The translations under genes were made by a program, and so were the position numbers. A stretch of 9,854 nucleotides of DNA from IMG/VR virus record IMGVR_UViG_2877973648_000003, one strand, 5' to 3'. Shown one piece after another: positions 552 through 9,854 of the stretch; positions within the stretch are counted from its first letter, which is position 1; every line of letters starts with the position of its first letter. The notes below the pieces were generated by a model, which did no database searches, was not told the origin of the DNA, and saw nothing but the letters and a program-made list of their open reading frames with translations. Source of the stretch: a virus (Duplodnaviria; Heunggongvirae; Uroviricota; Caudoviricetes).

Positions 552-566
552 AAATTTTTATAATAA
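552..566. other. attL core (lambda-type attachment site, host/prophage junction)
   Basis: AAATTTTTATAATAA followed by GTTGGCATTATAAAAAAGCATTGCTTATCAATTTGTTGCAACGAACAGG matches the recalled lambda attP core and P' arm (lambda core GCTTTTTTATACTAA). The left three bases differ, as expected for a host arm. One C-to-A difference lies in the overlap region (TTTATAA versus TTTATAC). Confidence 0.8.
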
Positions 567-574
567 GTTGGCAT

Positions 575-645
575 TATAAAAAAGCATTGCTTATCAATTT
601 GTTGCAACGAACAGGTCACTATCAGTCAAAATAAAATCATTATTT
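575..645. promoter_or_regulatory. attL P' arm: IHF-type site and Int arm-type binding sites (P'1-P'3)
   Basis: CAGGTCACTAT (612-622), CAGTCAAAAT (623-632) and AAAATCATTAT (about 634-645) fit the Int arm-type consensus. The upstream TTATCAATTTGTTGCAACGAACAGG resembles the lambda H' IHF site. The int stop lies 74 bp from the core, as in lambda. Confidence 0.75.
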
Positions 646-1710
646 GATTTCAATTTTGTCCCACTCCCTGCCTCTGTCATCACGATACTGTGATGCCATG
701 GTGTCCGACTTATGCCCGAGAAGATGTTGAGCAAACTTATCGCTTATCTGCTTCTCATAGAGTCTTGCAGACAAACTGCGCAACTCGTGAAAGGTAGGCG
801 GATCCCCTTCGAAGGAAAGACCTGATGCTTTTCGTGCGCGCATAAAATACCTTGATACTGTGCCGGATGAAAGCGGTTCGCGACGAGTAGATGCAATTAT
901 GGTTTCTCCGCCAAGAATCTCTTTGCATTTATCAAGTGTTTCCTTCATTGATATTCCGAGAGCATCAACATGCAATACTGTTGGGATGGCAATTTTTACG
1001 CCTGTTTTGCTTTGCTCGACATAAAGATATCCATCTACGATATCAGACCACTTCATTTCGCATAAATCACCAACTCGTTGCCCGGTAACAACAGCCAGTT
1101 CCATTGCAAGTCTGAGCCAACATGGTGATGATTCTGCTGCTTGATAAATTTTCAGGTATTCGTCAGCCGTAAGTCTTGATCTCCTTACCTCTGATTTTGC
1201 TGCGCGAGTGGCAGCGACAGGGTTTGTTGTTATATGGCCTTCAGCTATTGCCTCTCGGAATGCATCGCTCAGTGTTGATCTGATTAACTTGGCTGACGCC
1301 GCCTTGCCCTCGTCTATGTATCCATTGAGCATTGCCGCAATTTCTTTTGTGGTGATGTCTTCAAGTGGAGCATCAGGCAGACCCCTCCTTATTGCTTTAA
1401 TTTTGCTCATGTAATTTATGAGTGTCTTCTGCTTGATTCCTCTGCTGGCCAGGATTTTTTCGTAGCGATCAAGCCATGAATGTAACGTAACGGAATTATC
1501 ACTGTTGATTCTCGCTGTCAGAGGCTTGTGTTTGTGTCCTGAAAATAACTCAATGTTGGCCTGTATAGCTTCAGTGATTGCGATTCGCCTGTCTCTGCCT
1601 AATCCAAACTCTTTACCCGTCCTTGGGTCCCTGTAGCAGTAATATCCATTGTTTCTTATATAAAGGTTAGGGGGTAAATCCCGGCGCTCATGACTTCGCC
1701 TTCTTCCCAT
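640..1710 (-). CDS. int: Tyrosine integrase, lambda Int (356 aa)
   Basis: The translation is near-identical to lambda Int as I recall it (MGRRRSHERRDLPPNLYIRNNGYYCYRDPRTGKEF...REWDKIEIK) and has the catalytic R/K/H/R/H/Y residues including the LLGH and Y motif near the C-terminus. It overlaps xis as in lambda and is adjacent to the att site. Confidence 0.97.
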   Translation of the reverse strand: MGRRRSHERRDLPPNLYIRNNGYYCYRDPRTGKEFGLGRDRRIAITEAIQANIELFSGHKHKPLTARINSDNSVTLHSWLDRYEKILASRGIKQKTLINYMSKIKAIRRGLPDAPLEDITTKEIAAMLNGYIDEGKAASAKLIRSTLSDAFREAIAEGHITTNPVAATRAAKSEVRRSRLTADEYLKIYQAAESSPCWLRLAMELAVVTGQRVGDLCEMKWSDIVDGYLYVEQSKTGVKIAIPTVLHVDALGISMKETLDKCKEILGGETIIASTRREPLSSGTVSRYFMRARKASGLSFEGDPPTFHELRSLSARLYEKQISDKFAQHLLGHKSDTMASQYRDDRGREWDKIEIK

Positions 1711-1906
1711 TTCTGATCCTCTTCAAAAGGCTACCTGTTACTGGTCGATTTAAGTCAACCTTTACCGCTGATTCGTGGAACAGATACTCTCTTCCATCCT
1801 TAACCGGAGGAGGGAATATCCTGCACTCGCGTACCCATCGACGAACTGTTTCAAGGCTTCTTGGGCGTCGCTGGCGTGCGTTCCACTCCTGAAGTGTCAA
1901 GTACAT
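1688..1906 (-). CDS. xis: Excisionase Xis (72 aa)
   Basis: MYLTLQEWNARQRRPRSLETVRRWVRECRIFPPPVKDGREYLFHESAVKVDLNRPVTGSLLKRIRNGKKAKS matches lambda Xis in sequence and length. Its 3' end overlaps the int start. Confidence 0.95.
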   Translation of the reverse strand: MYLTLQEWNARQRRPRSLETVRRWVRECRIFPPPVKDGREYLFHESAVKVDLNRPVTGSLLKRIRNGKKAKS

Positions 1907-1930
1907 CGCAAAGTCTCCGCAATTACACGC

Positions 1931-1953
1931 AAGAAAAAACCGCCATCAGGCGG
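1931..1953 (-). terminator. Putative intrinsic terminator (5-bp GC stem CCGCC/GGCGG, 4-nt loop, then six Us on the minus strand)
   Basis: On the minus strand: GCCGCCUGAUGGCGG followed by UUUUUUCUU. The stop codon of the 55-codon ORF sits in the loop. The stem is short, so confidence is moderate. Confidence 0.4.
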
Positions 1954-2113
1954 CTTGGTGTTCTTTCAGTTCTTCAATTCGAATATTGGTTACGTCTGCA
2001 TGTGCTATCTGCGCCCATATCATCCAGTGGTTATAACAGTCGTTGATGTTCTCTGCTTCGATAACCCTGTTGAATGGCTCTCCATTCCATTCACCTGTGA
2101 CTCGGAAGTGCAT
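1946..2113 (-). CDS. Small hypothetical protein (55 aa), positional counterpart of the lambda small ORF next to xis
   Basis: Found by my own translation; it is below the size cutoff of the ORF track. MHFRVTGEWNGEPFNRVIEAENINDCYNHWMIWAQIAHADVTNIRIEELKEHQAA. Same size and position as the lambda 55-codon ORF right of xis. Confidence 0.6.
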   Translation of the reverse strand: MHFRVTGEWNGEPFNRVIEAENINDCYNHWMIWAQIAHADVTNIRIEELKEHQAA

Positions 2114-2124
2114 TTATCATCTCC

Positions 2125-2151
2125 ATAAAACAAAACTCGCCGTAGCGAGTT
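2125..2151 (-). terminator. Putative intrinsic terminator downstream of the 142-aa gene
   Basis: On the minus strand: AACUCGC-UACG-GCGAGUU (7-bp stem) followed by UUGUUUUAU. It lies between the stop of the 142-aa ORF (2197) and the start of the 55-codon ORF (2113). Confidence 0.5.
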
Positions 2152-2196
2152 CAGATATAATTTCCACCAAAGGCAGTAGTTGCTTGATGCTAAGAA

Positions 2197-2625
2197 TTAT
2201 TCAATATCTATTCCTGTAATCTCTTTTATCTTTTTCCTTGCAAAGCCTTTTGCTAGTGATTTTGAAACACTCATAAGTGTACTAATTCCCTCATCCTTAA
2301 AGTTTGTTTTTATAGCTTGCCAGACATCCTTTTGACGTAAGTCAGCAATAAAATCATGCCCTCTTGCTGTCAACCTCAGTGGTACTTCGATCCAACTATA
2401 TCCAACACCTTCCCCTAACGCTTTGGACAATATATGACCGAACCCAGGTTTTCCATCAACCCTGACTATTAATTCGTAGTCACATAATAATCGCATATGG
2501 AAAATAAAATCTTGGTCATATCTATTAAAGCCATTATCCTCTAGTTCACTAAGCATCGTGTCAGGGCCACGAGTTTTTTCGAATGCGATAAGTAGATCTT
2601 TTAGATATTGCTGGTCTAATTTCAT
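2197..2625 (-). CDS. Hypothetical protein, 142 aa, AT-rich accessory (moron-like) gene of unknown function
   Basis: Clean ORF with a strong SD (GGAGGCG) 5-7 nt upstream of the ATG. Base composition is visibly more AT-rich than the flanking lambda-like genes (by eye, not computed). No signal peptide or TM segment is evident. I do not recognise the family with confidence. Confidence 0.6.
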   Translation of the reverse strand: MKLDQQYLKDLLIAFEKTRGPDTMLSELEDNGFNRYDQDFIFHMRLLCDYELIVRVDGKPGFGHILSKALGEGVGYSWIEVPLRLTARGHDFIADLRQKDVWQAIKTNFKDEGISTLMSVSKSLAKGFARKKIKEITGIDIE

Positions 2626-2635
2626 TGCCGCCTCC

Positions 2636-2647
2636 GTGACATGTCAC
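2636..2647. promoter_or_regulatory. Perfect 12-bp palindrome GTGACATGTCAC in the 28-bp gap between the 112-aa and 142-aa genes
   Basis: Read directly from the sequence: the motif equals its own reverse complement. It sits just upstream of the SD of the 142-aa gene. Confidence 0.35.
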
Positions 2648-2653
2648 AGAGAT

Positions 2654-2992
2654 TTATATCATTAATTTTGTTTCGTGCCAGCCTTTGGTCACCCAGCATT
2701 GTGAGTCACCATTACACGGGCATGAATTAACAGGAACTCTCTCGCCGCACTTACCGCACCGTTTTCTGCTGATCGATTTTATACGCCAGCGCACACGTGC
2801 ATCATCCTGGCGGCTCAGTAACGCGATGTACTCACCAAACTCGCAAGGCGCACGCCTGAAGCGACGCGTGGCACAGTTACGCTCCAGCATTTCAATTTCC
2901 TGAGCATCAAGTACAAGCTCCAGCTTACGCATACCGGATGATGCTTGCTTGGCTCTCTGATCGGCTTTGTGCTCTGTTGCTGATTTAGCCAT
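2654..2992 (-). CDS. Small basic Cys-rich protein (112 aa), probable zinc-ribbon; occupies the position of lambda ea8.5
   Basis: ORF with an SD-like AGGAAAA upstream. The C-terminal part has CGKCG...CPC...C spacing typical of a zinc ribbon. Base composition resembles the lambda-like backbone. Any identity with Ea8.5 is positional inference only. Confidence 0.55.
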   Translation of the reverse strand: MAKSATEHKADQRAKQASSGMRKLELVLDAQEIEMLERNCATRRFRRAPCEFGEYIALLSRQDDARVRWRIKSISRKRCGKCGERVPVNSCPCNGDSQCWVTKGWHETKLMI

Positions 2993-3188
2993 TCTGCTTT
3001 TCCTGCATCAGGAGAAAGACAATCATGGCGGCGCGGATACTTCCGGTATCTTTATACGCGATATTCCCCTTCAATGGCACATACAAGAAGAGAGCCATCA
3101 ACAGGAGTGATTGAGGAATCGACAACCAGCAACGCTTAATTATCTATAGTGTCGTATTTGCTTCATAAAATATGGCGAATAACACAAA

Positions 3189-3220
3189 GCCCGCAGCAGC
3201 TCATTGTGCGGGCTTTTCTT
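3189..3220 (-). terminator. Putative bidirectional intrinsic terminator (GCCCGCA...TGCGGGC, 7-bp stem) downstream of the secreted-protein gene
   Basis: Stem 3189-3195 pairs with 3207-3213 around an 11-nt loop. It is followed by TTTTCTT on the plus strand and UUUGUGUU on the minus strand, about 70 nt past the stop at 3286. Confidence 0.55.
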
Positions 3221-3285
3221 ATACCTACTTCCTAGAGATAATTCTATGGAGGCATTAAATCAATACTGTCATTGGTAATATCATA

Positions 3286-3900
3286 TTATCTAAAAGTCTT
3301 TCCACTTTTAACATCTAGGTATATTCTGTTCGACAACGTCATTCCTCCGCAATATGTGAAATAGATGTTTTCACCCTTATTGCTTGATGCCATCCACCCT
3401 CCGATTTCCTTAAAATCGCTTTCCGTGCAGACCCCTTCATTTATTAACTTCCTAGCTGCCGAAGAAAACTCTTTTTTGTATATACGGTAGTCATCAGATC
3501 CTTTGATTAAAGTATCATCTCCGCTCGCATTTTCAGCAGGATCTGATGGCCTTTCACTGCTAAGATCACTAAATTTAACCCATTCTGAAAACTTGCCATT
3601 AACGATTCCATTTTTTCTTGTGCAGGATTTATTACCTTCTTTAATATATTCGCTTTCCCCTCCAACACATGAGGCTGAATATGGCTCAGTTATACGAACC
3701 CATTCACCTTTTTTTTCTAGAAAATCTACGCCTTCCCTGAAAAATAGTTTCCCAGCCACTCCACATTTACTTGAAGGGCAGGTATGTCTTTCCGTTCGAT
3801 CAACAACAACCCATAGTTTTGATTCATTTTTTGCCATTGCCGATGGTATTTGAGATGAGACAATTAACGTAAGCCCTAAAATTAGTATTGATTTTTTCAT
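3286..3900 (-). CDS. Secreted or periplasmic Cys-rich protein, 204 aa, unknown function (AT-rich moron)
   Basis: N-terminus MKKSILILGLTLIVSSQIPSAMA-KNE is a classical Sec signal peptide with an AXA cleavage motif. The mature part is hydrophilic with about 8 Cys. SD AAGGAAA lies 6-7 nt upstream of the ATG. The gene is AT-rich and has its own terminator. It does not match Bor, Lom or Cor as I recall them. Confidence 0.7.
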   Translation of the reverse strand: MKKSILILGLTLIVSSQIPSAMAKNESKLWVVVDRTERHTCPSSKCGVAGKLFFREGVDFLEKKGEWVRITEPYSASCVGGESEYIKEGNKSCTRKNGIVNGKFSEWVKFSDLSSERPSDPAENASGDDTLIKGSDDYRIYKKEFSSAARKLINEGVCTESDFKEIGGWMASSNKGENIYFTYCGGMTLSNRIYLDVKSGKTFR

Positions 3901-4198
3901 TGTAATTTCCTTTTACTTTTTACAAAGCGTTTAATCATGGCTGATTATCTCTAAGTGTAGTAACAGCCTTGTGCGAAACATGTTACCAAATCGCCATTTC
4001 AGTGTATCCGCAGTTAGGCTGCCACTTCAAGGATTCCTAATTACATGGTACGTAAGCGTAAAATCCCGTTGGTTGGCGGGTAATAACTCTGATCAAATCT
4101 CCCTTGTCTTTTGCTCTTACGTATGCAGCTCTTGTGTATTCAACCCAGGCCTCCAGTTCAGCAATACGCTTACTTCCATCCGAGATAACACCTTCTAC

Positions 4199-4450
4199 TC
4201 ACGCTGCTCGTTGAGTTTTGATTTTTGCTGTCTCCAGCTCAACACGCAGTTTCCCCACCGTTAGCGCAATATCCTCGTTCTCCTGGTCGCGGCGTTTGAT
4301 GTATTGCTGGTTTCTTTCCCGTTCATCCAGCAGTGTCAGCACAATCGATGGTGTTACCAGCTCATGGAAAAGGTCCGCGTCAAATCCCCAGTTGTCAGGC
4401 ATTGCCTGCTCTGCCGCTTCACGCAGTGCCTGAGAGTGAATTACGCTCAC
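4199..4450 (-). CDS. ea22: Ea22-like protein, N-terminal segment (83 aa) ending at an in-frame TGA; the reading frame stays open for 53 further codons (4040-4198) to a TAG at 4037-4039
   Basis: MSVIHSQALREAAEQAMPDNWGFDADLFHELVTPSIVLTLLDERERNQQYIKRRDQENEDIALTVGKLRVELETAKIKTQRAA resembles the lambda Ea22 N-terminus as I recall it. After the TGA, the same frame reads VEGVISDGSKRIAELEAWVEYTRAAYVRAKDKGDLIRVITRQPTGFYAYVPCN. Its 3' end overlaps the start of the TraR-like gene. Confidence 0.55.
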   Translation of the reverse strand: MSVIHSQALREAAEQAMPDNWGFDADLFHELVTPSIVLTLLDERERNQQYIKRRDQENEDIALTVGKLRVELETAKIKTQRAA

Positions 4451-4668
4451 TTCGAACCTCTCTGTTTACTGATAAGCTCCAGATCTTCCTGGCAACTTGC
4501 ACAAGTCCGACAACCCTGAACGGCCAGGCGTCTTAGCTCATCTATGGGATCGCCACACTCACAACAATGAGTGGCAGATACAGCCTGGTGGTTCAGGCGG
4601 CGCATTTTTATTGCTGTGTTGCGCTGTAATTCTTCAATTTCTGATGCTGAATCAATGATGTCTGCCAT
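4447..4668 (-). CDS. DksA/TraR-family C4 zinc-finger protein (73 aa), lambda Orf73/TraR-like
   Basis: 73 aa with paired Cys-x2-Cys motifs (CCEC ... CRTCASC) and the size typical of TraR-family proteins. It sits where lambdoid phages carry their TraR homologue in the early-left operon. Confidence 0.75.
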   Translation of the reverse strand: MADIIDSASEIEELQRNTAIKMRRLNHQAVSATHCCECGDPIDELRRLAVQGCRTCASCQEDLELISKQRGSK

Positions 4669-4766
4669 CTTCCATTAATCCCTGAATTGTTGGTTAATAC
4701 GCTTGGGGGTAAATGCGAGCAATAAAAAAGGAGCCTGTAGCTCCCTGATAATTTTGCTTTTCATGT

Positions 4767-5048
4767 TCATCGTTCCTTAAAGACGCCGTTTAACATGCCG
4801 ATTGCCAGGCTTAAATGAGTCGGTGTGAATCCCATCAGCGTTACCGTTTCGCGGTGCTTCTTCAGTACGCTACGGCAAATGTCATCGACGTTTTTATCCG
4901 GAAACTGCTGTCTGGCTTTTTTGATTTCAGAATTAGCCTGACGGGCAATGCTGCGAAGGGCGTTTTCTTGCTGAGGTGTCATTGAACAAGCCCCATGTCG
5001 GCAAGCATAAGCACACAGAATATGAAGCCCGCTGCCAGAAAAATGCAT
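4767..5048 (-). CDS. Small early-left-operon protein (lambda orf61-like); start ambiguous (93 aa from 5048, or 71 aa from the ATG at 4982)
   Basis: ORF in the expected position and orientation. The 5048 start lies 10 nt after the upstream gene stop and has no obvious SD. The internal ATG at 4982 overlaps the TGA of a 5-codon upstream mini-ORF (ATGA), a translational-coupling arrangement. Confidence 0.5.
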   Translation of the reverse strand: MHFSGSGLHILCAYACRHGACSMTPQQENALRSIARQANSEIKKARQQFPDKNVDDICRSVLKKHRETVTLMGFTPTHLSLAIGMLNGVFKER

Positions 5049-5058
5049 TCAGTGGTTG

Positions 5059-5250
5059 TCATACCTGGTCTCTCTCATCTGCTTCTGCTTTCGCCACCAT
5101 CATTTCCAGCTTTTGTGAAAGGGATGCGGCTAACGTATGAAATTCTTCGTCTGTTTCTACTGGTATTGGCACAAACCTGACTCCAATTTGAGCGAGGCTA
5201 TGTGCCATCTCGATACACGTTCTTAACTCAACAGGAGATGCTTTGTGCAT
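5059..5250 (-). CDS. Small early-left-operon protein, 63 aa (lambda orf63-like)
   Basis: 63-aa ORF with a G-rich SD (GGGGGG) upstream. Size and position match lambda orf63. Confidence 0.6.
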   Translation of the reverse strand: MHKASPVELRTCIEMAHSLAQIGVRFVPIPVETDEEFHTLAASLSQKLEMMVAKAEADERDQV

Positions 5251-5368
5251 ACAGCCCCCCGTTTATTATTTATCTCCTCAGCCAGCCGCTGTGCTTTCAG
5301 GGGATTTCTGATAACAGAAAGGCCGGGAAATACCCAGCCTCGCTTTGTAACGGAGTAGACGAAAGTGA

Positions 5369-5593
5369 TCGCACCTACCGGAAACAACGCGCGGCGCTCT
5401 TTACTCGTTCGTCTATAACGTGGGCGCAGGCAATTTCAGAACATCTACTCTTCTTCGCAAAATAAACCAGGGCGATATCAAGGGCGCATGTGACCAGCTA
5501 CGTCGCTGGGCATACGCTGGCGGTAAGCAATGGAAAGGCCTGATGACTCGTCGTGAGATTGAGCGTGAGGTCTGTTTGTGGGGGCAACAATGA
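5369..5593 (+). pseudogene. 3' remnant of an endolysin gene (T4-type/P21-type lysozyme R); N-terminal catalytic part absent and frameshifted upstream
   Basis: In-frame translation ...[71 protein letters not shown] matches the C-terminus of E. coli cryptic-prophage lysozymes as I recall them. There is no start codon. An in-frame TGA at 5366-5368 and a shifted frame lie upstream. The stop overlaps the Rz start (ATGA). Confidence 0.75.
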
Positions 5594-6054
5594 GCAGGGT
5601 AACCGCGATTATCTCCGCTCTGGTTATCTGCATCATCGTCTGCCTGTCATGGGCTGTTAATCATTACCGTGATAACGCCATTACCTACAAAGCCCAGCGC
5701 GACAAAAATGCCAGAGAACTGAAGCTGGCGAACGCGGCAATTACTGACATGCAGATGCGTCAGCGTGATGTTGCTGCGCTCGATGCAAAATACACGAAGG
5801 AGTTAGCTGATGCGAAAGCTGAAAATGATGCTCTGCGTGATGATGTTGCCGCTGGTCGTCGTCGGTTGCACATCAAAGCAGTCTGTCAGTCAGTGCGTGA
5901 AGCCACCACCGCCTCCGGCGTGGATAATGCAGCCTCCCCCCGACTGGCAGACACCGCTGAACGGGATTATTTCACCCTCCGGGAACGACTGGTAATGATG
6001 CAGGCCCAACTTGAAGGTGCTCAGCAATACATAACCGAGCAGTGTTTAAAGTAA
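5590..6054 (+). CDS. Rz: Spanin, inner-membrane subunit Rz (154 aa)
   Basis: [60 protein letters not shown]... matches lambda Rz as I recall it, with an N-terminal TM segment and coiled-coil region. The ATG overlaps the endolysin stop. The ORF track's longer 5578 start is an in-frame GTG upstream. Confidence 0.9.
5810..5995 (+). CDS. Rz1: Spanin, outer-membrane lipoprotein subunit Rz1 (61 aa), embedded in the +1 frame of Rz
   Basis: [24 protein letters not shown]... has a lipobox (VVGC) and a proline-rich mature part. It is fully nested inside Rz in another frame, as in lambda. Confidence 0.85.
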
Positions 6055-6191
6055 AATCTTAACTACAATATGATTCATTTTGATGATTGTTTCATAAGGA
6101 ACAGTGAAGTAAGATCTAAGAGGAGTTAAATTTTATACAGTATAATCATAATATTGCAGCAAGGTGGTTATAATTGAAAGAATATTTAGAT

Positions 6192-7649
6192 ATGAATACA
6201 TCTCATGTAAGAGTTGTTACTCATATGTGTGGGTTCCTGGTTTGGCTCTATAGTCTTTCAATGTTGCCACCAATGGTTGTAGCATTGTTTTATAAAGAAA
6301 AAAGCCTGTTCGTTTTCTTTATAACTTTCGTTATATTTTTTTGCATTGGTGGCGGAGCGTGGTATACAACTAAGAAATCTGGCATTCAATTACGTACCCG
6401 TGATGGGTTTATTATAATTGTAATGTTTTGGATTTTGTTTTCTGTTATTAGTGCATTCCCTTTATGGATTGACTCAGAACTTAATTTAACGTTCATTGAT
6501 GCTCTGTTTGAAGGGGTTTCTGGAATAACAACAACAGGAGCAACTGTAATTGATGATGTTAGTTCATTACCTCGGGCATATTTGTACTATCGGTCACAGT
6601 TAAATTTTATAGGTGGTTTAGGAGTTATTGTTCTGGCGGTTGCTGTATTGCCATTATTGGGTATTGGTGGTACAAAGCTTTATCAGTCAGAAATGCCGGG
6701 GCCATTTAAGGATGACAAACTCACTCCCCGCCTGGCCGATACGTCACGGACACTGTGGATAACTTATTCTTTATTAGGTATTGCTTGTATTGTCTGTTAT
6801 AGACTTGCAGGAATGCCTTTGTTTGATGCTATTTGTCACGGGATTTCCACAGTTTCGCTTGGTGGTTTCTCAACTCATAGCGAGAGTATCGGATATTTTA
6901 ATAACTATTTGGTTGAGCTGGTGGCTGGTTCTTTTTCCCTGCTATCGGCTTTCAACTTCACTCTTTGGTATATTGTTATTAGCAGGAAAACGATAAAACC
7001 TTTAATCAGAGATATTGAACTTCGTTTCTTTCTGTTAATAGCCTTAGGGGTGATCATTGTTACCTCTTTCCAGGTCTGGCATATAGGTATGTATGACTTG
7101 CATGGAAGTTTTATTCATTCGTTTTTTCTTGCCAGCTCCATGCTCACTGATAATGGTTTAGCTACGCAGGATTATGCAAACTGGCCCACGCACACGATAG
7201 TGTTTTTGCTGTCGTCAAGTTTCTTTGGGGGATGTATAGGTTCAACTTGTGGTGGAATTAAGTCACTTCGATTTCTTATACTTTTCAAACAAAGCAAACA
7301 CGAGATAAATCAGCTTTCTCATCCCAGAGCGTTGTTGAGTGTAAATGTAGGAGGGAAGATAGTTACAGATCGTGTAATGAGGTCTGTATGGAGTTTCTTT
7401 TTTCTTTATACTCTCTTCACGGTGTTTTTTATACTGGTGTTAAATGGTATGGGATATGATTTTCTTACATCATTTGCAACAGTGGCTGCATGTATTAATA
7501 ATATGGGATTAGGTTTTGGGGCTACTGCATCGTCATTCGGAGTGCTTAATGACATTGCAAAATATTTAATGTGCATAGCTATGATTCTTGGTCGCCTTGA
7601 AATTTATCCTGTTATTATATTGTTTTCAGGTTTTTTTTGGCGCTCCTAA
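6192..7649 (+). CDS. trkG: TrkH/TrkG-family potassium uptake protein (485 aa from the ATG at 6192; the ORF track extends to a TTG at 6174)
   Basis: Polytopic membrane protein with the repeated GxGG-type selectivity-filter segments (FEGVSGITTTGATV, STVSLGGFSTHSES, GSTCGGIKSLR, ACINNMGLGFGATASS). It is near-identical to E. coli TrkG as I recall it. The gene is AT-rich and lies immediately downstream of Rz/Rz1, the same arrangement as in the Rac prophage. Confidence 0.9.
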   Translation: MNTSHVRVVTHMCGFLVWLYSLSMLPPMVVALFYKEKSLFVFFITFVIFFCIGGGAWYTTKKSGIQLRTRDGFIIIVMFWILFSVISAFPLWIDSELNLTFIDALFEGVSGITTTGATVIDDVSSLPRAYLYYRSQLNFIGGLGVIVLAVAVLPLLGIGGTKLYQSEMPGPFKDDKLTPRLADTSRTLWITYSLLGIACIVCYRLAGMPLFDAICHGISTVSLGGFSTHSESIGYFNNYLVELVAGSFSLLSAFNFTLWYIVISRKTIKPLIRDIELRFFLLIALGVIIVTSFQVWHIGMYDLHGSFIHSFFLASSMLTDNGLATQDYANWPTHTIVFLLSSSFFGGCIGSTCGGIKSLRFLILFKQSKHEINQLSHPRALLSVNVGGKIVTDRVMRSVWSFFFLYTLFTVFFILVLNGMGYDFLTSFATVAACINNMGLGFGATASSFGVLNDIAKYLMCIAMILGRLEIYPVIILFSGFFWRS

Positions 7650-7734
7650 TATATGGCTGATTTATAATTGTGAGTTTAATATTATATTGACTCACTCATT
7701 GATCCAATACCTAACTTTACCAGCAACACCTCCG

Positions 7735-7770
7735 CCCCCAGTAGCACTGGCTGCTGGGGTGCGTTTTATT
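7735..7770 (+). terminator. Putative intrinsic terminator downstream of trkG
   Basis: CCCCAG...CTGGGG stem (7736-7741 pairing with 7754-7759) followed by TGCGTTTTATT. The loop is long at 12 nt, so confidence is modest. Confidence 0.35.
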
Positions 7771-7786
7771 CATAAAGCAAGGCTGT

Positions 7787-8218
7787 ATGAGCGAGAAATT
7801 AAAGATAGTCTATCGCCCATTACAAGAATTGTCACCGTATGCGCACAACGCCAGGACGCACAGTACTGAGCAGGTGGCACAACTGGTAGAAAGTATTAAG
7901 CAATTCGGCTGGACTAATCCGGTGCTGATTGACGAAAAGGGCGAAATTATTGCGGGTCACGGTCGTGTTATGGCGGCTGAAATGCTCAAAATGGATTCTG
8001 TTCCGGTCATTGTTCTGTCTGGCCTGACGGATGAGCAGAAAAAGGCGTACCGCCTGGCAGATAATCGCCTACCGATGAATGCTGGCTGGGATGAAGATCT
8101 GTTGCGGATGGAGCTGTCGGACCTAATCAATGCTGATTTTGATGTCTCCCTGACAGGCTTCGGCCCGACAGAAATTGATGAACTGTTGACGGATGTTTTG
8201 CCCGGTATCGGGCCTTAA
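7787..8218 (+). CDS. ParB-like nuclease-domain protein (143 aa), probably a C-terminally truncated fragment
   Basis: N-terminal ParB/Srx-type domain (YRPLQELSPYAHNARTHS...IIAGHGRVMAA...YRLADN). Its TAA stop lies 3 bp from the convergent tfa stop with no terminator between them. Prophage ParB-like proteins are usually larger. Confidence 0.65.
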   Translation: MSEKLKIVYRPLQELSPYAHNARTHSTEQVAQLVESIKQFGWTNPVLIDEKGEIIAGHGRVMAAEMLKMDSVPVIVLSGLTDEQKKAYRLADNRLPMNAGWDEDLLRMELSDLINADFDVSLTGFGPTEIDELLTDVLPGIGP

Positions 8219-8221
8219 TTT

Positions 8222-8749
8222 TTACTCTGGTTTTTGTGGCCATTCAGGATTTGCCGTATCCACACGGCTGACCAGAACACTGTAGCGTTCCCATGCTTCC
8301 AGTCGTGTGCGTTCCTCGTCTGTTGCCATATTCAGCCTGACAGCGCGTTCCAGCGGTTGGATGACTGATTCAGCTTCGGAAAGCAATGCGGCCTTTTGTG
8401 ATTCGGCCTGTTGTTGTTGCTCGTCTGCCGTATAAATCCGTTTAACCACAGCTCCGTCCCTAAACATCCACTTACTGGAATCATCAGCGCAGCGGTTGGC
8501 TGTAATATCTGGAACCTCAACGACGCTATAACCTTCAGGGTTAAGCGTGGAGGCATCTTTGGTGATGGCGACAATAATATTATTTGCATCGTAAACAATC
8601 TTTATTGTGTCTGGCTGAAAGTTTTTCACTTCCTCATACCAGTTTTTTCCGTCTTCGGACCATAACCAGATAACATCAAAATTCTTTGTTAGCTGATATT
8701 GTTCTTTTGTTTTTGGATTTCCAGACTTAATATTTTTTAAATGCTGCAT
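8222..8749 (-). CDS. tfa: Tail fibre assembly protein Tfa (175 aa)
   Basis: Tfa-family translation. It lies directly downstream of the tail-fibre cassette with a 3-nt gap, the typical stf-tfa arrangement. Confidence 0.85.
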
Positions 8750-8752
8750 AAA

Positions 8753-9715
8753 TTACACCTGTACGACGTTATACCATGTGCCATTGATGTATTTTTGTAT
8801 TGGTCTGAATACTGCCGGATCATCGCCATCAACTGCACCGATAATGCCAAGCCCCGTAATTGCATGACCTGATTTCTCATACATCACGCCTTTTTGCATA
8901 GTCTGAACAACACGTGTACCAAGTCGGACATCTCTCACATAACGTGAGTCAAAATTACCATAATTGCCGGGAATAACTTGCGCACCGCAAAGCCAGTTGC
9001 CATTGTTGTCCATGTACGCCTGACCATCGGTGCCATTGGCTGTCCTTGAGTTATTAATCATGTAGATGCCAAATTGCTTATTCCCCAGTCCACCAATCAT
9101 AAATTTGCGATCAGCGTGGTCCTGACGAAGTAATGCCTGCGCACCATCGGTGGATACCGCATTGCGTCCCAAAATAACATTCTGGTCACGCATATGAATC
9201 CACATGCCGGTACTACTGTTAATTGCAAAACGGTTTGCAAATATATCCCCTGTAACATCAAGACCATGCCCCATGCTTATCCGACCAGTTCTGAGATTAA
9301 GCGTAAAGGGGCGTAGTGGCCCTATATCACCATTTTCTCCCTCATTCTCTCGTGTAGGGATGATATGCAGGCATTCTTCAGAACGACGAAAAATAGCACC
9401 AAAAGATGAATTAAATATCCTCAGTGCATTGACTGTCGATATTTTTACTTCACTGCTGAAAAGGGCTTTAACAAGGACAGACAAAGCATCCCATTTAAGA
9501 GTCATCAGGTCTTTTGTTGTGGTGCTCTGGCGGCTTCTCCATTTGAAATATTCATTGCCGTTGTCGCCTGTTTCAAACCACATGTATGAATCAGTGTCGC
9601 TGTCGGCATTATTTTTAAAACCAATCTTTGCCCAGTCAGTATTTCTAATCCAGGCAAGGATTGAGTCGTTTTCAAAAGTAAGCCCACCGGACAAGGTATC
9701 GCCATTCTTTTGCAC
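8753..9715 (-). CDS. stf: Side tail fibre C-terminal variable cassette (320 codons), without its own N-terminal constant region
   Basis: Tail-fibre-like C-terminal sequence (NGDTLSGGLTFENDS..., Gly/Asn/Thr-rich). The open frame begins at a GTG (9713-9715) only 10 codons after an in-frame TAA that lies inside the crossover site. It is immediately adjacent to the pix-like site and tfa follows. This is the Sv'-U' arrangement of Gin/Pin/Cin invertible segments. Confidence 0.8.
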   Translation of the reverse strand: MQKNGDTLSGGLTFENDSILAWIRNTDWAKIGFKNNADSDTDSYMWFETGDNGNEYFKWRSRQSTTTKDLMTLKWDALSVLVKALFSSEVKISTVNALRIFNSSFGAIFRRSEECLHIIPTRENEGENGDIGPLRPFTLNLRTGRISMGHGLDVTGDIFANRFAINSSTGMWIHMRDQNVILGRNAVSTDGAQALLRQDHADRKFMIGGLGNKQFGIYMINNSRTANGTDGQAYMDNNGNWLCGAQVIPGNYGNFDSRYVRDVRLGTRVVQTMQKGVMYEKSGHAITGLGIIGAVDGDDPAVFRPIQKYINGTWYNVVQV

Positions 9716-9739
9716 GGCGTTCCTGGCCCTGTTTACCGT

Positions 9740-9765
9740 TTCCTGTAAACCGAGGTTTTAGATAA
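9740..9765. other. Gin/Pin/Cin/Hin-family DNA invertase crossover site (gix/pix-like)
   Basis: TTCCTGTAAACCGAGGTTTTAGATAA is a near-exact match to the recalled gix site TTCCTGTAAACCGAGGTTTTGGATAA. It consists of imperfect inverted 12-bp half-sites around a central dinucleotide and lies between the fibre cassette and the invertase start. Confidence 0.75.
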
Positions 9766-9819
9766 TGGCGGTTTCTGGCCTGCATGGCATGATTTGTGCT
9801 TTTGGACGGGAGATTCAGC

Positions 9820-9854
9820 GTGCTGATTGGCTATGTAAGGGTATCAACAAATGA
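9820..9854 (+). CDS. pin: Serine DNA invertase (Pin/Gin family), first 11 codons only; continues beyond the window
   Basis: GTG-CTG-ATT-GGC-TAT-GTA-AGG-GTA-TCA-ACA-AAT translates to (M)LIGYVRVSTN, the conserved N-terminus of Pin/Gin/Hin invertases including the catalytic Ser region. SD GGGAG lies 7 nt upstream. The TGA formed by the last three bases of the window is out of frame. The call rests on very little sequence. Confidence 0.6.
   Translation, partial: MLIGYVRVSTN

Follow-up and report, generated by a model that had tools for sequence, protein, structure and literature searches.

In invertible tail-fibre systems the constant 5' part of a fibre gene reads across a gix site, and its 3' part is supplied by one of two alternative cassettes. 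Every cassette is accompanied by a chaperone gene of its own, and the two sets face each other. Inversion of the segment joins the constant fibre part to the other cassette, whereby the host range is swapped. This type of module is textbook knowledge, and the described systems closest to the locus reported here are the G segment of Mu, SfMu and D108 (Gin/gix, S-U / S'-U'), the C segment of P1 and P7 (Cin/cix), and the P segment of e14 in K-12 (PinE/pix; stfP-tfaP / tfaE-stfE). The recombination is performed by Gin, which in dependence on Fis and an enhancer brings two inverted gix sites into synapsis and rotates a subunit pair, so that the segment flips (PMC3575834, PMC3798978). Catalysis by Gin requires Ser9 (PMC3575834). 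Wild-type invertases need a Fis-bound enhancer near a site, which in the Hin system lies at about 100 bp (PMC3798978).

The DNA analysed here is a stretch of 9854 bp, in the following called the window, and the region it covers is a decayed lambda-like prophage (lambdoid, cryptic). An earlier note had described its right-hand end as half of an invertible tail-fibre switch, either locked or vestigial, and all elements of that description were recovered at the positions given there. The homologies, the single crossover site, the truncation of the invertase gene and the deletion junction were observed directly, and with these at hand the region 8200-9854 is very probably an inert fossil, namely the invertase-proximal half of a Mu-type (Gin/gix) invertible tail-fibre segment formerly carried by a lambdoid prophage. 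Four of the six features that define such a switch were looked for and found to be absent, i.e. a second site, a complete invertase, a constant fibre region and a second cassette set.

The prophage remnant and its half of a tail-fibre segment

The general layout of the window, from the lambda-type integrase gene to the first codons of the invertase gene, is given in Table 1. The gene trkG and the 5' part of the ynaK-type gene are 99.5% identical to their counterparts in the Rac prophage of K-12. Fifteen complete E. coli records contain all 9854 bases at 100% identity, and large plasmids from two Klebsiella species, K. michiganensis and K. quasipneumoniae, carry the whole window as well. Plasmids of Enterobacter and Citrobacter carry it at 100% identity except for one end. 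A chromosomal copy at att-lambda was found in E. coli E2 (L006), where positions 555-9854 of the window are 100% identical. As a side observation, the window is an E. coli att-lambda prophage remnant that was captured at a secondary att site, and the captured remnant now travels on large plasmids among several Enterobacterales. The att-lambda element measures 11.6 kb, has an intact int and xis and is bounded by attL and attR, and the secondary site lies next to a Dps-family gene of the plasmid.

Table 1. Features of the 9854-bp window, with positions, strands and the evidence for each.
Feature	Position	Strand	Evidence or remarks
int, lambda-type	640-1710	minus	
xis and a few early-region genes			within the decayed prophage window
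Rz/Rz1	5578-6054		
trkG	6174-7649		
ParB-like (ynaK-type) gene, 5' part	7787-8218	+	Pfam ParB_N, E=3.4e-07
Deletion junction	8200-8207	no strand	homology breakpoints and junction sequences read directly
GC-rich hairpin followed by T-run	8200-8213	+	terminator-like match GCCCGGTATCGGGC + CTTAATTTTT
tfa (tail-fibre assembly chaperone, Mu U homologue)	8222-8749	minus	intact, 175 aa, own ATG
Start-less Sv-type variable C-terminal fibre cassette	8753-9757	minus	334 codons and stop (8753-8755)
Single gix-type crossover site, 26 bp	9740-9765	+	TTCCTGTAAACCGAGGTTTTAGATAA
Gin-like serine invertase, first 11 codons	9820-9854	+	GTG start, VLIGYVRVSTN; Ser9 codon 9844-9846

Positions 8222-9854 align collinearly with the U-Sv half of the invertible segments found in PhiR68_1, D108, SfMu, Mu, P1 and P7, and also with one half of that of D6, the nucleotide identity being 80-91%. 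The fibre genes of phage P88 are collinear at this level too, and the H-G genes of P2-like phages match as well. The match to SfMu is continuous through tfa, the cassette and the site, and extends into gin.

The 26-bp site consists of an inner half-site (9740-9751), the central dinucleotide GA (9752-9753) and an outer, invertase-side half-site (9754-9765). It is identical to the gin-proximal gix of SfMu in 26 of 26 positions and to both gix sites of Mu in 25 of 26, and the Mu sites coincide with the annotated boundaries of the G segment. A crossover site of the kind used by this family (26 bp with a 2-bp core) is thus present, and in the window it is unique at up to three mismatches, with a chance expectation of 0 matches. 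Of the earlier description of the site as gix/pix-like, the gix part holds. The pix identity was rejected, with mismatches at 8-9 of 26 positions to both e14 pix sites, as compared to 0-1 for the gix sites of Mu and SfMu.

The fibre cassette has no start codon and its frame is open, as the earlier note had claimed, but it opens inside the crossover site and not merely within 10 codons of it. The mechanical open reading frame begins at a GTG at 9715 and encodes 320 aa, whereas the open frame itself extends to the length given in Table 1. The first sense codon is AAC (9755-9757), and the encoded peptide starts NLGLQETVNRARNAVQKNGDTLSGG (NLGLQETVN…), i.e. with the residues that follow the crossover junction in Mu S (…FIQNLGLQETVNRARNAV…). 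The expressed Stf of E. coli strain SEC470, which harbours a lambdoid prophage, shares this start in part (…YLGLQETVN…). Over its whole length the cassette is homologous to the C-terminal part of Mu S, the receptor-binding region, with amino acid identities of 70% to Mu S residues 167-504 (340 aligned positions) and 84% to SfMu_52. In line with this, it matches the structure of Mu tail fibre protein S (PDB 5yvq; E=3.3e-149, chain residues 169-502) and the Pfam family Gp34_trimer.

Upstream, the frame is closed by a TAA at 9758-9760, in the outer half-site. The A at 9760 is the sole base by which the site differs from those of Mu, and it creates TAA where the S frame of Mu has CAA. Since an inversion would leave the outer half-site next to the invertase gene, this stop codon is no defect of the cassette. 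A consensus scan of the minus strand upstream of the cassette yielded no promoter above chance, the number of promoter-like sites being lower than expected by chance, which makes the scan uninformative.

The cassette is followed by tfa, as previously noted, and the gene is intact. Over 175 aa its product shares 93% identity with Mu U, with 87% for SfMu_51 but only 56% for Mu U', and it matches Pfam Caudo_TAP (PF02413) with E=4.8e-37 over profile positions 2-131 of 131. The set had previously been designated the silent Sv'-U' half of a segment. It is indeed silent and invertase-proximal, but by homology (70% for the cassette and 93% for the chaperone, against 56% for U') it is the Sv-U set. This is the only set of cassette and chaperone gene in the window, and a second one in the opposite orientation is absent.

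The invertase stub, the deletion junction and the search for a partner site

The invertase gene begins beside the site, as originally described, and its Ser9 codon is present (Table 1). However, the window stops 35 nt into the gene, and the reading was continued in genomes in which the window occurs. There the gene is incomplete, being either cut by IS26 or ended by a stop codon and a deletion. IS26 interrupts it in six of six whole-window contexts inspected, at about nt 110 in L004, L005 and L013-L015 and at about nt 153 in L001. In a seventh whole-window record, the K. michiganensis plasmid L016, IS26 is found on that side and the gene table contains no invertase fragment.

In the chromosomal att-lambda form (L006) codon 65 is TGA and the product has 64 aa, with about 95% identity to the N-terminus of Mu Gin. 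Homology to Mu gin stops near nt 190, while a pinE-like homology goes on to about nt 236. There a deletion has fused the invertase gene to the last ~80 nt of a tfaR-type gene, and this 3' end is an 89% match to the 3' end of K-12 Rac tfaR. Only the Resolvase N-terminal domain was detected by Pfam in the stub, which lacks the remainder of the catalytic domain as well as the oligomerisation helix and the DNA-binding domain. By analogy with Hin, the enhancer would be expected about 100 bp from the site, that is at or beyond the end of the window, and IS26 may have taken part or all of the stretch matching it. The alternative in the earlier note between locked and vestigial is settled by the stub, which strengthens the vestigial reading and rules out a switch that is locked but otherwise intact.

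On the left side the ParB-like fragment ends in a short out-of-context tail, …LPGIGP followed by a stop codon, which is explained by deletion of everything up to the tail-fibre module. The fragment is collinear with K-12 Rac ynaK up to position 8040, and with a longer ParB-like ORF of strain PK8568 (L002) up to 8207. ParB-side homology stops at 8207 and tail-fibre-side homology (to Mu, SfMu and L002) starts at 8200, and the overlap is an 8-bp imperfect microhomology, GCCCGGTA / GCCCGCTA. Compared to L002, the window has undergone a further deletion of 823 bp across this microhomology. The lost 823 bp, which L002 has kept, comprise the remaining part of the ParB-like gene and a 3' fragment of a second chaperone gene, U'. 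This U' leftover is 370 bp long in L002 and is absent from the window.

The junction is also the position of the hairpin, the counterpart of which in Mu (GGCCCGCTATCGGGCCTTAATTTTT) is located between U' and U. The hairpin is a leftover of the intergenic one that separates U and U' where these genes converge in Mu-type segments, with its left arm now rebuilt out of ParB-side sequence. The constant 5' part of the fibre gene, with its promoter and start codon, is absent. Left of tfa lie the ParB-like fragment and trkG, which agrees with the previous statement that these two occupy the place of the other half.

A partner site was looked for both in the window and beyond. In a fuzzy search of both strands of the 9854-bp window no second site was found at up to seven substitutions, and no inverted repeat involving the site occurs in 7700-9854, which bears out the earlier note on this point. 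The site with 40-50 nt of flanking sequence on each side was then compared with all complete E. coli genomes by sensitive BLAST, and the places were counted per replicon. On 11 of the 12 whole-window replicons listed no second place for site and flanks was found. These are the chromosomes of AH04, AH02, CT01 and TC24, six plasmids of ~304 kb and pABWA45_1; the remaining one, the plasmid of ATCC 98082, has two places. The BLAST search misses sites that combine at least two mismatches with the lack of a conserved flank, and the negative result is therefore good but not absolute. Among E. coli genomes with a match, the median was 2 places per genome and the maximum 8.

Decay of the segment and other readings of the locus

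Related loci show the segment at different stages of completeness. The lambdoid prophage of SEC470 (L012) has J, lom, a full-length stf of 3.1 kb and tfa, followed by an inverted tfa and cassette, gix and a gin stub, and its two inverted gix sites are 2.9 kb apart. It already has the TGA at codon 65 and the gin-tfaR' fusion of the att-lambda form. Since this prophage still has both gix sites and contains the same dead gin, the invertase was probably dead before the deletions seen in the window. In PK8568 the order is ParB-like gene, U' 3' fragment, U, Sv, gix and gin stub. A different deletion is found in ETEC-type strains (L003), where a J fragment abuts a truncated tfa, and in a Citrobacter plasmid (L017) Tn5403 is located within the cassette. 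An intact system with a 199-aa invertase is present in a P2-like prophage of an O145 strain (L011). In all loci inspected, tfa, cassette, site and invertase stub were arranged in the same way.

A comparison was made of eleven loci, located on chromosomes or on plasmids of E. coli, Klebsiella and Citrobacter. The cassette exhibited no substitution over the parts present, and ten of the eleven loci hold it whole and 100% identical; tfa exhibited two substitutions, both in L002. With so few substitutions, dN/dS was uninformative as to selection on the open cassette frame. That the frame is still open, a point raised earlier as if at odds with a dead switch, is correct but no puzzle, since the copies are too young for decay, and the open frame says nothing about selection.

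Taken together, the intact parent segment worked as the Mu G segment does. Its invertase was probably inactivated first and one half deleted thereafter, an order that is suggested by the comparison with SEC470. Lost by deletion are the constant fibre region, the partner gix, the second cassette and the entire block of structural genes. Only the silent set has survived, with its U-type chaperone gene and start-less Sv-type cassette, together with the gin-proximal gix and the opening codons of gin. With the invertase broken and the partner lost nothing can invert, and without a start codon the cassette is not translated as a fibre, so that no switch function remains. Both tfa and the cassette are presumably without useful expression.

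It is improbable, though, that the remnant is kept for some use other than switching, either because Tfa/U serves the fibres of other resident prophages or because the cassette and its chaperone gene act as a recombination donor. Such a donor would change the host range of incoming Mu-, P1-, P2- or lambda-like phages. The intact tfa with its start codon and a cassette free of internal stops are what one would expect of a remnant in use, and the 80-91% nucleotide identity to many phages offers ample substrate for homologous exchange. Mosaicism is seen in SEC470, where the silent cassette has been replaced in the middle. On the other hand, the examined copies are identical and so give no indication of selection in either direction, in other lineages tfa is partly lost (L003) or the cassette is interrupted by a transposon (L017), and upstream of the cassette the minus strand has no promoter-like site above chance.

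A related reading starts from the location of the fossil on broad-host-range IncA/IncFII-type plasmids, beside IS26. It would make the locus a travelling host-range cassette, or a site through which resident invertases rearrange their replicons, and is in our view very unlikely. If it were true, Mu-, P1-, P2- and lambda-like phages would acquire gix, cassette and chaperone gene by homologous or invertase-mediated recombination.

We regard it as extremely unlikely that the orphan gix is still active over long range, recombining with a distant gix or pix on the same replicon by means of a resident invertase of the Gin/Pin family supplied in trans. Large inversions would be the consequence, or a cassette re-joined to a fibre gene elsewhere. 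All 26 bp of the site are intact and agree with those of a phage site that is presumed functional, several related sites are common in E. coli genomes (see the median and maximum above), and Gin, Cin, Pin and Hin are interchangeable, all of which speaks for such activity. However, the single place on 11 of the 12 whole-window replicons listed leaves most of these replicons without a similar second site, the invertase encoded in cis is a stub, and the local arrangement did not vary between the loci inspected. Moreover, the enhancer, which in the Hin system is required close to the site (PMC3798978), would by analogy have lost part or all of its stretch to IS26.

Finally, the reading that the locus was never invertible, and is a truncated fibre/chaperone pair of the P2 H-G type that came to lie beside a recombinase fragment by chance, has next to no probability and was refuted by gix identity, frame position and SfMu collinearity: the cassette and tfa do have matches of 77-92% nucleotide identity in P2 and P2-like phages, and no invertase lies under the match in the P2-type records listed, but the frame is interrupted beside the middle of a perfect gix and not at a random point, the stub shares about 95% identity with the N-terminus of Mu Gin and has the spacing seen in SfMu, and the homology to SfMu is unbroken from tfa into gin.

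The preferred reading, an inert fossil of a Gin/gix segment, has its main consequence for annotation. RefSeq already flags the pieces as pseudogenes and lists them apart, the cassette as a 'phage tail protein' pseudogene without N-terminus and the invertase piece as an incomplete pseudogene of a 'recombinase family protein'; both stem from a single former Gin/gix switch. The decay of invertible tail-fibre modules in cryptic prophages is clearly illustrated by the locus, which points to neither a new mechanism nor a new question and is of small importance.

Comparison with described invertible segments

The Rac prophage of K-12 was rejected as a direct counterpart of the locus, with no gix-like site (the best candidate has 9 mismatches) and with a pinR that is different and in the opposite orientation. 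The likeness of Rac (trkG-ynaK … stfR-tfaR-pinR) to the window is confined to the flank, i.e. trkG and ynaK, and to the tfaR 3' fragment. Its pinR, on the other strand, encodes a more distant recombinase.

The P segment of e14 resembles the window in belonging to a defective prophage and in having a start-less silent cassette, the stfE pseudogene, that adjoins the invertase gene, and the invertase stub of the window resembles the N-terminus of PinE. In contrast to the window, e14 has kept both sites and a full-length pinE, and its pix sites differ at 8-9 of 26 positions. The fibre and chaperone proteins of e14 gave no BLASTP match to the cassette or tfa of the window at E<=1e-3. With the C segment of P1 and P7 the window has 82-88% nucleotide identity over tfa and the cassette, which correspond to the annotated U/U' genes and the C-terminal ends of S. 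The P1 and P7 matches stop at query position 1482-1526, just before the site, and, compared to the C segment, the window holds half a switch with a dead invertase.

SEC470 has an identical gin-proximal gix, and the 5' end of its cassette is 95% identical to that of the window at the nucleotide level. Its silent cassette matches that of the window only at the ends, with a different middle part, and unlike the window it still has two gix sites and two cassette sets, in addition to J, lom and a full-length stf.

The window differs from the G segment of Mu, SfMu and D108 in having one gix, one cassette set, no constant S region and a gin stub, and in its host element, which is the remnant of a lambdoid cryptic prophage, whereas the G segment belongs to Mu-like phages. 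The two agree in the site, which matches in 25-26 of 26 positions, in the order U - Sv - gix - gin and in the entry into the frame at the crossover. At the protein level the identity is 93% for the chaperone, 70-84% for the cassette and about 95% for the stub against the N-terminus of Mu Gin. The locus is accordingly to be filed as the remnant of a Gin/gix switch, and not as a switch.

Attachment sites and probable relocation of the remnant

In the chromosome of E. coli E2 (L006) the same remnant resides at the canonical att-lambda site, where it measures about 11.65 kb in total, a diguanylate cyclase gene included, and retains intact int and xis ORFs. Both attachment cores are perfect there, the attL core reading GCTTTTTTATACTAA. 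The P' arm of the window is identical to that of E2, but the core of the window differs (AAATTTTTATAATAA), and the left prophage junction is flanked by a Dps-family gene. Judged from this altered core and new flank, as compared with the canonical site in E2, the remnant seems to have been transferred to a secondary att site with its deletions already in place. The transfer was presumably carried out by Int.

Lysis genes, the ParB-like ORF and an internal deletion

The fragment of the rrrD-type endolysin gene directly abuts early-region genes of the other strand, and this junction is the mark of another large internal deletion, comprising the immunity, replication and Q regions. The ParB-like ORF exceeds YnaK of K-12 (87 aa), and its counterpart in strain PK8568 is longer than the ORF of the window, with about 275 codons to the first stop. 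RefSeq annotates the ParB-like DNA variably, either as a 432-bp CDS or as a 258-bp pseudogene.

Coordinates of features in the window
Feature	Position (nt)	Remark
Left prophage junction	540-640	compared with E. coli E2 (L006) 4998-5012 and 16638-16652
Endolysin gene, rrrD type	~5375-5593	upstream of Rz; 3' fragment only, per RefSeq
Rz	5578-6054	158 aa; intact
Rz1-like ORF	5810-5995	embedded in Rz
ParB-like ORF	7787-8218	143 aa

Plasmid carriage and insertions

Large plasmids from E. coli, Klebsiella michiganensis and K. quasipneumoniae carry all 9854 bp of the window with 100% identity, and partial copies, likewise 100% identical, lie on plasmids of Enterobacter and Citrobacter freundii (observed in L004, L013, L014, L016 and L017). 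Replicon types were seen for two of the plasmids (IncA plus IncFII, and IncA). Since identical copies are thus present on plasmids of several genera, the trkG-bearing chromosomal prophage remnant of E. coli is now plasmid cargo.

In every copy that was read, namely those in six E. coli contexts and that of the K. michiganensis plasmid, the invertase side is flanked by IS26. The element adjoins the invertase stub at two different points, both just past the right end of the window, namely at about nt 153 of the gene in one whole-window context (L001, ~11270) and at about nt 110 in others (L004 and L005, ~14930), and its orientation is opposite at the two junctions. One arrangement occurs in the AH04 chromosome and the other in plasmid-type contexts, a pattern which suggests that IS26 mediated adjacent deletions or rearrangements in succession. 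On the C. freundii plasmid pA18-1 (L017, ~9249-13143) the tail-fibre cassette is interrupted by a Tn5403-family transposon, and a BLAST overlap at the insertion point reveals a 7-nt duplication of window sequence (reference positions 742-748 of the cassette plus tfa, coding strand, counted from window 9757).

Invertible segments in related prophages

A G-like segment that is complete in structure, with a pair of gix sites in inverted orientation and neither cassette set missing, lies at 4328-7280 of L012 in the lambdoid prophage of E. coli SEC470. Similar lambdoid prophages also have such segments, and the invertase adjoining these complete segments is the same dead stub.
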